From IMG/VR virus record IMGVR_UViG_3300033402_000018: a DNA stretch of 55,764 nt; one strand, 5' to 3'. The DNA comes from a virus. The position numbers and the translations under genes were made by a program. The notes under the pieces are model-generated. The model was not told the DNA's origin, ran no database searches, and saw only the letters and a list, made by a program, of their open reading frames with translations. Below, piece after piece: positions 35,456 to 35,620 of the stretch; the first letter of the stretch is position 1; each line of letters opens with the position of its first letter.

Positions 35456-35485
35456 TGGACAAATTTTCGAAATTCGCAGTATACT
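35456..35485 (+). promoter_or_regulatory. sigma70-like promoter of the tRNA operon
   Basis: TGGACA-N18-TATACT. Confidence 0.5.
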
Positions 35486-35498
35486 AATAGAGAACAGC

Positions 35499-35567
35499 AT
35501 GAACCGCATATCCTCATTATCGTCATCTAGTAGCTCCACCGGGGCGGGGGTCGGCGTGTATGCGTAA
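35499..35567 (+). CDS. candidate leader peptide (22 codons, Ser run)
   Basis: ATG AAC CGC ATA TCC TCA TTA TCG TCA TCT AGT AGC TCC ACC GGG GCG GGG GTC GGC GTG TAT GCG TAA = MNRISSLSSSSSSTGAGVGVYA; between promoter and terminator; no clear SD. Confidence 0.45.
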   Translation: MNRISSLSSSSSSTGAGVGVYA

Positions 35568-35593
35568 ATAAGCGCAAGGAAACACGAAACGAC

Positions 35594-35620
35594 AGCCGCC
35601 AAGATTGGCGGCTTTTTTAT
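35594..35620 (+). terminator. Rho-independent terminator / candidate attenuator
   Basis: AGCCGCC-aagatt-GGCGGCT then TTTTTTATTT; 19 nt before first tRNA. Confidence 0.75.

Follow-up and report, generated by a model that had tools for sequence, protein, structure and literature searches.

The region directly upstream of the transfer RNA (tRNA) operon in IMG/VR virus record IMGVR_UViG_3300033402_000018, a stretch of 55,764 nucleotides (the window) analysed here as a whole, is probably a ribosome-mediated, leader-peptide attenuator that would control transcription of the operon. A sigma-70-type promoter, a 22-codon open reading frame (ORF) crowded with serine codons and an intrinsic terminator follow one another immediately before a cluster of tRNA genes (Table 1). 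This interpretation is supported by conservation, by selection at the codon level and by covariation of alternative RNA pairings. As modelled, the layout is that of a classic 1:2/2:3/3:4 attenuator. It comprises a short promoter-proximal ORF with clustered regulatory codons (eight Ser codons in ten; 20 relatives), a terminator lying between this ORF and the genes with no later promoter, an antiterminator that excludes the terminator by engaging its 5′ arm, if weakly in the window, and a protector hairpin that a stalled ribosome could cover.

The leader ORF and its promoter

An initial annotation, made from the letters of the sequence, had proposed the promoter, the 22-codon ORF and, in codons 4–13 of the latter, the presence of all six Ser codons together with ATA and TTA. 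All three proposals agree with the sequence, including the position of the ORF, its translation MNRISSLSSSSSSTGAGVGVYA and the match of the promoter to the sigma-70 consensus. Transcription is predicted to start at about position 35492, which would leave a 5′ untranslated region (UTR) of about 7 nt. When all six frames of the 55.8-kb window were read, the leader was the sole place with at least eight Ser codons in ten, and also the sole run holding all six Ser codons; block shuffles of the window gave a mean of 0.44 scan windows with at least seven. The Ser run in the leader is more than chance. TTA and ATA are the least used leucine and isoleucine codons in the element's own genes, at 4% each.

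The leader ORF carries no gene call in any locus examined. Long minus-strand ORFs at 35523–35816 and 35285–35626 overlap the leader and the tRNA genes, and a minus-strand gene of 73 amino acids is called across the leader region in loci L003, L006 and L007. These minus-strand calls are probably spurious and mask the leader ORF.

A promoter matching the consensus at 9 or more of 12 positions occupies the equivalent place in 12 of the 15 leaders scanned, in most relatives as TTGACA-17-TATTGT. The start codon is always ATG, and in 13 of these 15 leaders it follows the end of the −10 box by 6–13 nt. No Shine–Dalgarno (SD) sequence precedes the leader ORF of the window; AGGA is found upstream of the ATG in L165, L017 and the variant L014. 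The short 5′ UTR without a clear SD, entered as a caveat in the initial annotation, is therefore real, and the spacing shows it to be a conserved trait. Because the promoter and the ATG are only 6–13 nt apart, the mRNA would be leaderless or nearly so, and the conserved distance from the −10 box fits initiation of this kind. Leaderless short ORFs with cysteine runs have been reported to attenuate downstream genes in mycobacteria (bioRxiv 10.1101/834739).

Conservation of the module in syntenic loci

Searches with megablast and blastn against 50,697 GenBank phages returned generic tRNA-Ser matches only and no relative, and tblastn with a 902-amino-acid protein gave a single distant match among GenBank phages. 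In IMG/VR, the exact leader string had no match, and a search for related loci with the SprT protein alone gave nothing. The SprT-like protein is encoded by the neighbouring gene at 34545–35228. Seven contigs with an identical SprT protein (L001–L007) also have an identical leader and are uninformative on conservation, since both sequences are the same as in the window. A protein search yielded SprT homologues that are 40–58% identical, and the contigs of eight of them were looked up; an alignment-based scan added a ninth syntenic locus, L230, with an SprT protein of 38% identity. These nine loci were thus picked without use of the leader sequence.

All nine are syntenic, with an ABC-type ATPase, a ferredoxin, SprT, a gap and a peptidyl-tRNA hydrolase of the PTH2 type. 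The promoter, the Ser-run mini-ORF and the terminator stand directly before the first tRNA gene in eight of the nine; the initial annotation had named absence of the Ser run from homologous loci as an outcome that would refute its reading, and the opposite was found. The cluster of four tRNA-Ser genes and tRNA-Leu(UAA) is likewise present in eight of the nine, the remaining locus, L312, having tRNA-Ser(GCU) alone before bacterial genes. Two DNA pattern scans added about 11 distinct versions of the leader, for a total of about 20. The eight leaders derived from synteny constitute the unbiased evidence, because members found by pattern were selected for TCG TCN TCN AGT AGC TCC. A loose pattern, AGTAGCTCCN{3,4}GGRGCNG, gave at least 120 matches, mostly random, and a tighter one gave 87 metagenome and 46 genome matches, mostly in Ser-rich coding sequence without a nearby tRNA gene.

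Selection on the codons of the leader

All 20 distinct leaders begin with ATG and continue in an open frame that ends in a stop codon; the ORF is 22–27 codons long, and indels between family members sum to multiples of three. The SprT gene provides a measure of the divergence against which this can be set. Between the window and L008, L009 and L010, the SprT proteins are 53–58% identical, and the synonymous sites are saturated, since identical degenerate residues are specified by the same codon in just 41–47% of cases. Over the first 39 nt of the leader ORF, by contrast, the window is identical to L008 and L010 at 38 of 39 positions and 95–97% identical to L314 and L316. The adjacent tRNA-Ser(GCU) genes are 76–84% identical, that is, often below the start of the leader. 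The C-terminal half of the peptide varies freely. High identity over 39 nt beside saturated SprT sites, together with this variable C-terminal half, argues that selection acts on codons or nucleotides and not on the peptide.

The codons retained are those that would sample the tRNAs of the operon. Each of the four Ser isoacceptors is represented by one or more codons in 20 of 20 leaders, ATA is likewise present in all of them, and TTA is missing only from L016/L227. The full set of six Ser codons is not universal, TCT being absent from nine leaders (the L008 group, L146, L312, L314, L315 and L317). The usual order is CGC ATA TCC TCA TTA TCG TCA TCK AGT AGC TCC; in L009, L146 and L315 it is rearranged to TTA CGC ATA TCR TCG TCG TCN AGT AGC, and despite the rearrangement these leaders cover the four Ser isoacceptors, TTA and ATA. 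In L016/L227, the leader lacks TTA and the cluster lacks tRNA-Leu(UAA), the sole complete cluster to do so, while the 15 complete clusters with TTA in the leader all have this tRNA. As there is one such case, the co-variation of TTA with tRNA-Leu(UAA) is suggestive only.

It might be argued that the leader is a decayed tRNA-Ser pseudogene, or a processing leader beside a terminator that insulates the cluster from upstream genes, with no switch involved. The tract UGGGAGAGCGGU that follows the Ser run in L008-type leaders does resemble the D-arm of a tRNA-Ser, and in the variant loci L014 and L224 a Ser-codon box abuts a real tRNA-Ser(GCU) without a terminator. Neutral remnants, however, would not hold 95–97% identity beside saturated synonymous sites, the terminator cannot insulate an upstream gene because the promoter lies between the two, and the covariation of RNA regions 2 and 3 described below would be left unexplained. 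We regard such an origin without present function as very unlikely.

The variant module (L014 4677–4787; L224 2273–2383) is located on a different, GC-rich viral contig of 54 kb, after tRNA-Leu(CAA) and tRNA-Leu(UAG). It consists of an AGGA SD, ATG TCA TCG TCA TCT AGT AGC TCC, 1 nt and then the tRNA-Ser(GCU), within which the ORF ends. The D-arm of this tRNA, UGGCAGAGCGGU, resembles the tract that follows the Ser run in the L008-type leaders. The comparison suggests that the attenuator may have originated in a mini-ORF of Ser codons that overlapped a tRNA gene, and a tRNA origin of the leader is compatible with a present function in attenuation.

Alternative RNA structures

Region 1 consists of the last two Ser codons, AGC UCC, which pair with GGGGCU in hairpin 1:2 (AGCUCC/GGGGCU). 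The loop of this hairpin is 3–4 nt long and free in sequence (ACC, AUUU, ACAC, UUCG, UCU and others). In 15 relatives with 4-nt loops, to which the count was limited because MAFFT mis-registered three leaders with 3-nt loops, 94% of cells pair, as compared with 24–62% when the partner is slid. A compensatory double change from C–G to A–U occurs in L316/L317, and one-sided improvements are seen in L315 (U·G to C–G) and L017 (U·G to U–A).

Region 2 is a G-rich tract that starts within the 3′ strand of hairpin 1:2. Its complement, region 3, consists of the terminator 5′ arm together with a few bases that precede this arm. In the window, GGCGG..GUCG pairs with CGAC..CCGCC to form the base of the antiterminator, with the stop codon in the apical loop. 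The initial annotation had noticed part of this as a weak pairing between GGCGG at 35543–35547 and CCGCC at 35596–35600; the pairing exists and turns out to be the base of a long, co-varying hairpin. Folded alone, the antiterminator of the window has a free energy (ΔG) of −27.1 kcal/mol versus −14.4 kcal/mol for the terminator. In 14 of 15 leaders, the RNA spanning regions 2 and 3, taken by itself, forms one long hairpin, with ΔG of −22 to −36 versus −13 to −20 kcal/mol for the terminator, and in 20 of 20 leaders the stop codon is found at or near the apex, 21–32 nt before the terminator arm.

The two strands have diverged together. In 10 of 11 lineages, the terminator 5′ arm has its best upstream partner 10–14 nt past the start of AGTAGCTCC, and very different sequences fill the two positions, for instance CUGAUGGC with GCCAUCAG in L017 and GGCUUUGG with CCGAAGCC in L015. 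In L165 and L175, region 2 repeats 9–10 nt of region 4, the 3′ arm of the terminator: GGGGCGGCGU is present as both regions in the former, and GGGUGGCGU in the latter. Across 15 lineages, the region 2:3 duplex energy was −17.6 kcal/mol for own pairs and −14.2 kcal/mol for swapped pairs, a difference reached in 0 of 200,000 permutations (p<1e-5).

The terminator (3:4) recognized in the initial annotation as a hairpin ahead of the first tRNA gene is indeed there, formed by AGCCGCCA and UGGCGGCU. Its stem has eight pairs, six of them G–C, and its U-tract ends 16 nt before the first tRNA gene. It is found in every family member, with stem sequences that differ and covary. Since only about 3–25 nt separate the terminator region from the first tRNA gene in relatives, too short a distance for another promoter, the tRNAs would be made only by read-through of the terminator.

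Full-length folding without a ribosome gave a terminator probability of 0.91–0.99. A ribosome was simulated by masking a 28-nt footprint before equilibrium folding. In L008, L009, L010, L015, L165, L191 and L219, this lowered the probability of the terminator from at least 0.91 to 0.0–0.4; the drop occurred only with the A site on TCG, TCA, TCT or AGT, and the value was back at about 0.97 after the ribosome had moved on. Folding for mutually exclusive structures, as suggested in the initial annotation, points to a co-varying antiterminator that would compete with the terminator, but at equilibrium the window itself stays with the terminator.

These structures also bear on the idea that promoter, mini-ORF and terminator form an independent small gene, for a small RNA (sRNA) of about 125 nt or a Ser-rich micropeptide, the tRNAs being supplied by constitutive leaky read-through. 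A promoter, some 125 nt and an intrinsic terminator make up the layout of many sRNAs; weak, sub-threshold matches to Rfam sRNA models were obtained, mainly from the terminator, and the nucleotide order at the 5′ end is highly conserved, as in sRNA seeds. Yet an sRNA needs neither an ATG at a fixed distance from the −10 box, nor frame-preserving indels, nor a stop codon at the apex of a hairpin, nor a region 2 that co-varies with the terminator 5′ arm, while a functional peptide would lead to amino-acid conservation with synonymous drift, the opposite of what is observed. A separate small gene is therefore distinctly unlikely as the whole explanation. The roles of attenuator and of sRNA or micropeptide are not mutually exclusive, and attenuator-derived sRNAs with functions in trans do exist (rnTrpL, PMC6614838).

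The tRNA operon and the possible signal

The tRNA genes were called with Rfam and with ARAGORN, the latter run at default as well as relaxed thresholds and both allowing and disallowing introns. Rfam and ARAGORN bear out the anticodons GCU, CGA, GGA, UGA and UAA given in the initial annotation, and the same five recur in L008–L010, L015, L017, L165, L175, L191, L216, L219 and L314–L317. The initial annotation had also described a UAU-type loop that would read ATA; this could not be substantiated, as neither ARAGORN, whether default, relaxed or intron-tolerant, nor Rfam gives a tRNA(UAU) in the window. Of its proposal that ten consecutive leader codons mirror the decoding capacity of the operon, nine codons therefore stand, and ATA is unmatched.

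ARAGORN names a tRNA-Ile(UAU) in L016 (372–464) and L017 (8316–8407; both in oriented coordinates), but these measure 92–93 nt, have A73 and carry a long variable arm. In build they are class II, unlike tRNA-Ile, and their charging identity is uncertain. The tRNA-Leu(UAA) of the window, L015 and L017 is merely 77–78 nt long, the usual length for tRNA-Leu being about 85–87 nt, and its charging identity is uncertain as well.

The signal sensed may be tRNA supply or serine charging, and our confidence on this point is lower than for the mechanism. The same attenuator hardware could respond to serine starvation, through uncharged host and viral tRNA-Ser, or serve as an infection timer, and we hold either to be rather unlikely. 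Classical attenuators respond to charging, Ser codons act as starvation sensors in Bacillus subtilis sinR (PMC3862929), and the leader presumably cannot tell host from viral tRNAs. Extra tRNA, on the other hand, gives no relief from amino-acid starvation, so that the output would not fit the input. Sampling of every Ser isoacceptor and of the rare UUA would be needless for the sensing of serine, whereas it matches the downstream genes, and L016 is without both TTA and tRNA-Leu(UAA).

Proposed mechanism

For an attenuator that senses tRNA supply, the following sequence of events can be envisaged; that the leader is translated, which way the switch works and what signal acts on it in the cell are all inferred. 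A host-type RNA polymerase would start about 7 nt before the AUG (0–6 nt in relatives), and a ribosome would translate the 22-codon leader, whose codons 5–13 would sample the four downstream Ser isoacceptors and, through UUA, tRNA-Leu(UAA). When these codons are read fast, the ribosome would move on across region 2 and along the 5′ side of the long hairpin until it met the stop codon at the apex, leaving region 3 single-stranded; region 3 would then pair with region 4, and transcription would end at the terminator before the tRNA genes. If a sampled tRNA is scarce, uncharged or damaged, the ribosome would stall on the run and cover region 1 (AGC UCC), freeing region 2 to pair with region 3; the antiterminator would form, and the polymerase would read into the tRNA genes. 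Without a ribosome, hairpin 1:2 and the terminator would form together, and the default state would be off, because ribosome-free folding yields the terminator at 0.91–0.99. On balance, the element would make its own Ser and Leu(UAA) tRNAs according to demand.

Several observations weigh against this scheme. The start of transcription, the translation of the leader and conditional read-through are deduced from sequence features. In the window, the terminator probability under masked folding stays near 0.95 wherever the ribosome is placed, as it does in L016, L017, L146 and L175, and the part of the antiterminator that is exclusive with the terminator amounts to only 5 + 4 bp. Since equilibrium stays with the terminator, read-through in the window could occur only kinetically, with the antiterminator folding ahead of the terminator while the RNA is being made. 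In the Escherichia coli trp leader, the terminator is likewise more stable than the antiterminator, and read-through is kinetic. Whole-leader minimum free energy (MFE) z-scores in the window are unremarkable (−1.67 and −0.52). From a plain MAFFT alignment, RNAalifold recovered nothing useful, since the high variability of the middle of the leader defeats alignment by sequence; the alignment-free tests of own versus swapped duplexes were used in its place.

Other difficulties concern the leader ORF. As it has no SD, its translation would require a leaderless or near-leaderless start, and starts of this kind are inefficient in some bacteria. In a simple model, stalling at codons 4–7 would take place at too great a distance 5′ of region 2 to uncover it. 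ATA is kept in all leaders, yet a tRNA named Ile(UAU) occurs only in L016 and L017. The order of the codons is also more conserved than isoacceptor sampling alone requires, and the leader RNA sequence may carry a second constraint. Most of the additional family members were found through the Ser-codon pattern given above, and conservation of the core is partly a matter of ascertainment. Finally, in L230, which is the most distant of the syntenic loci, the promoter, AGTAGCTCC-AAC-GGGG and the terminator are retained but the Ser run, the frame and region 2 have been lost. Its leader (7033–7260) has a UTR of about 73 nt, a 7-codon out-of-frame ORF and a deletion of about 12 nt in region 2, and is read as a decayed copy.

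Relation to known regulatory systems

The proposed attenuator resembles trpL, hisL, leuL, thrL, ilvL/ivbL and pheL in its promoter-proximal short ORF with a run of regulatory codons and in its default termination. As in these biosynthetic leaders, a protector hairpin involves the regulatory codons, and the antiterminator shares a strand with the intrinsic terminator; codons for more than one amino acid are also mixed in thrL and ilvL. It differs in that the output is tRNA genes instead of enzymes, that synonymous codons would sample four isoacceptors where one codon is repeated in the biosynthetic leaders, that the stop codon is located in the apex of the antiterminator, that the leader has no SD and would be (near-)leaderless, and that the element is viral or extrachromosomal. 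The best scores with the Rfam models Trp_leader, Leu_leader, His_leader, Thr_leader and Phe_leader were 13.6–17.8 bits, against gathering thresholds of 41–55.

A functional parallel is the pheM leader-peptide attenuator of E. coli, which controls pheST, encoding phenylalanyl-tRNA synthetase. Like the module described here, it governs a component of the translation apparatus and responds to the decoding of cognate codons; unlike it, pheM regulates a protein, concerns one amino acid, has a conventional SD and is chromosomal. The polycysteine short ORFs of mycobacteria (bioRxiv 10.1101/834739) are similar in their position at or near the transcript 5′ end and in the stalling of ribosomes on a run for one amino acid. 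They differ in controlling cysteine-related protein genes without sampling of isoacceptors, and have not been described for tRNA genes.

A translation-independent switch, in which a tRNA would bind the leader directly through the Ser codons in the manner of a T-box, has in its favour that the leader codons are complementary to the anticodons of the regulated tRNAs. T-boxes also make read-through of a terminator upstream of translation-related genes depend on the status of a tRNA. However, they regulate synthetases and transporters and bind uncharged tRNA without ribosomes; their hallmarks are Stem I with its specifier loop, the T-box motif and a bulge that binds the tRNA acceptor. The leader of the window, at about 120 nt, has no Stem I, specifier loop or T-box sequence. 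No T-box model matched within 3 kb at E-values up to 1, and neither a T-box nor any other riboswitch model matched a 201-nt query at E-values up to 10. Conservation of the ATG, the frame and the stop codon points instead to translation, and direct tRNA binding must be considered extremely unlikely. Model scores, codon conservation and covariation led to the rejection of four explanations of the locus, namely a T-box, one of the leaders already in Rfam, a micropeptide with a function of its own and a remnant that evolves neutrally.

A full-text literature search found no leader-peptide attenuator reported upstream of tRNA genes. Attenuation has been described for amino-acid biosynthesis and for a synthetase, and phage tRNA genes are usually treated as constitutive supplements. 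If our interpretation is correct, the locus would provide direct feedback from decoding capacity to tRNA synthesis, and it would follow that synonymous codons can form a panel in which each isoacceptor is sampled. As a small, naturally occurring sensor of tRNA supply, the leader could also be adapted to report tRNA depletion or anticodon-nuclease activity. The notion that phage tRNAs are an answer to tRNA-targeting defences would also become testable at a defined locus.

In this respect, phage tRNAs have been discussed as answers to anticodon nucleases (PMC10264068), and Schlafen nucleases cut type II tRNAs, i.e. those for Ser and Leu (PMC13245857). It is tempting to speculate that a full Ser set with Leu(UAA) might need inducible replacement because of such cutting, which would create a stall that the leader could detect; no regulatory leader appears in these papers, and the link is speculative. 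The module would then be an inducible counter-defence, a multi-isoacceptor sensor of tRNA integrity derived from a Ser mini-ORF that overlapped a tRNA-Ser gene, an arrangement still present in L014/L224. A host nuclease or shut-off would destroy the long-arm (type II) tRNAs of the Ser family and Leu(UAA), and stalling on the codon sampler would turn on the replacement tRNAs, possibly along with the downstream peptidyl-tRNA hydrolase. This extension is tentative, and we think the odds are against it.

Genomic context of the module

Table 1. Features of the putative attenuator and of the tRNA operon in the window
Feature	Position	Strand	Details
Sigma-70-type promoter	35456–35485	+	TGGACA (35456–35461), N18, TATACT (35480–35485); 10/12 consensus match
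Leader ORF	35499–35567	+	22 codons, peptide MNRISSLSSSSSSTGAGVGVYA; ATG 35499, stop TAA 35565–35567
Regulatory codon run	35508–35537	+	leader codons 4–13: ATA TCC TCA TTA TCG TCA TCT AGT AGC TCC
Hairpin 1:2 (protector, possibly pause)	35533–35545	+	GCUCC 35533–35537, loop ACC, GGGGC 35541–35545
Antiterminator, long imperfect hairpin	35543–35601	+	region 2 35543–35553, region 3 35590–35600
Intrinsic terminator (3:4)	35594–35622	+	AGCCGCCA AGAU UGGCGGCU 35594–35613, U-tract TTTTT-A-TTT to 35622
tRNA-Ser(GCU)	35639–35728	+	G73 discriminator, long variable arm, encoded CCA
tRNA-Ser(CGA)	35730–35815	+	G73 discriminator, long variable arm, encoded CCA
tRNA-Ser(GGA)	36033–36122	+	ARAGORN, Rfam
tRNA-Ser(UGA)	36128–36213	+	ARAGORN, Rfam
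tRNA-Leu(UAA)	36234–36311	+	ARAGORN, Rfam

The 217-nt gap between the second and third tRNA genes, Ser(CGA) and Ser(GGA), contains a structured element of about 130 nt (35900–36032, plus strand) that ARAGORN does not call as a tRNA and that has no matching family in Rfam. Its parts are an outer stem (UCGCAG/CUGCGA), an inner stem (ACAGU/ACUGU), a T-arm-like hairpin GGUUCGAUCC and an extra hairpin, with an MFE of −51.3 kcal/mol (z = −3.9). The element is kept at the equivalent position in L008, L010, L191 and L216, and a pattern derived from it gave no match in IMG/VR. It may be a tRNA-like non-coding RNA co-transcribed with the operon. Compared with the equivalent gap in L010, L191, L216 and L008, the window has an insertion of about 69 nt at 35826–35895. 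Insertions between tRNA genes occur in relatives too, such as a PDDEXK_5 gene in L009. Overlapping the 3′ end of tRNA-Leu(UAA) in the window, a minus-strand ORF of 78 amino acids (36278–36514) carries the HNH endonuclease motifs PF13392 and PF01844 and is probably a truncated homing endonuclease.

Just past the tRNA cluster, a Cys-rich ORF of 127 amino acids (36882–37265, plus strand) gives a match to the RNase P Rpr2/Rpp21 zinc ribbon that is sub-threshold (22.9 bits versus a cut-off of 29.3) and too weak to interpret. The gene for the PTH2-type peptidyl-tRNA hydrolase follows at 37505–37768 (plus strand), 1–2 kb downstream of the cluster, and is also kept downstream of it in L008, L009, L010, L314, L316 and L317. 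No plus-strand terminator was detected between the tRNA cluster and this gene in the window, and a strong promoter-like site precedes it at 37418–37446. The PTH2 gene may belong to a translation-stress module shared with the tRNA cluster.

The sole hint as to the host comes from L312, which is contig_8928 of a metagenome-assembled genome of Acidobacteriota, 1.48 Mb. A block of about 6.5 kb (locus positions ~5300–11950) made up of genes of this element family, with the ferredoxin, SprT, the leader and tRNA-Ser(GCU), lies there between the bacterial genes tig-clpP-clpX-lon and cydAB, and stops directly after the tRNA-Ser gene. Possible explanations are the remains of a prophage, integration at the tRNA-Ser gene and an assembly error.

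Contigs bearing the module, some of them in IMG/VR, reach 340–465 kb, and other genes of the window include those for an NAD-dependent ligase, ThyX, an AAA ATPase and a major-vault-protein-like protein; gene content and contig sizes fit a very large virus-like element. The last of these genes (50013–52460, plus strand), which is also present in L315, encodes a protein of 815 amino acids with the shoulder (PF11978, 3e-26) and repeat (PF17795) domains of the Major Vault Protein, domains that one would not expect in a phage-like element.

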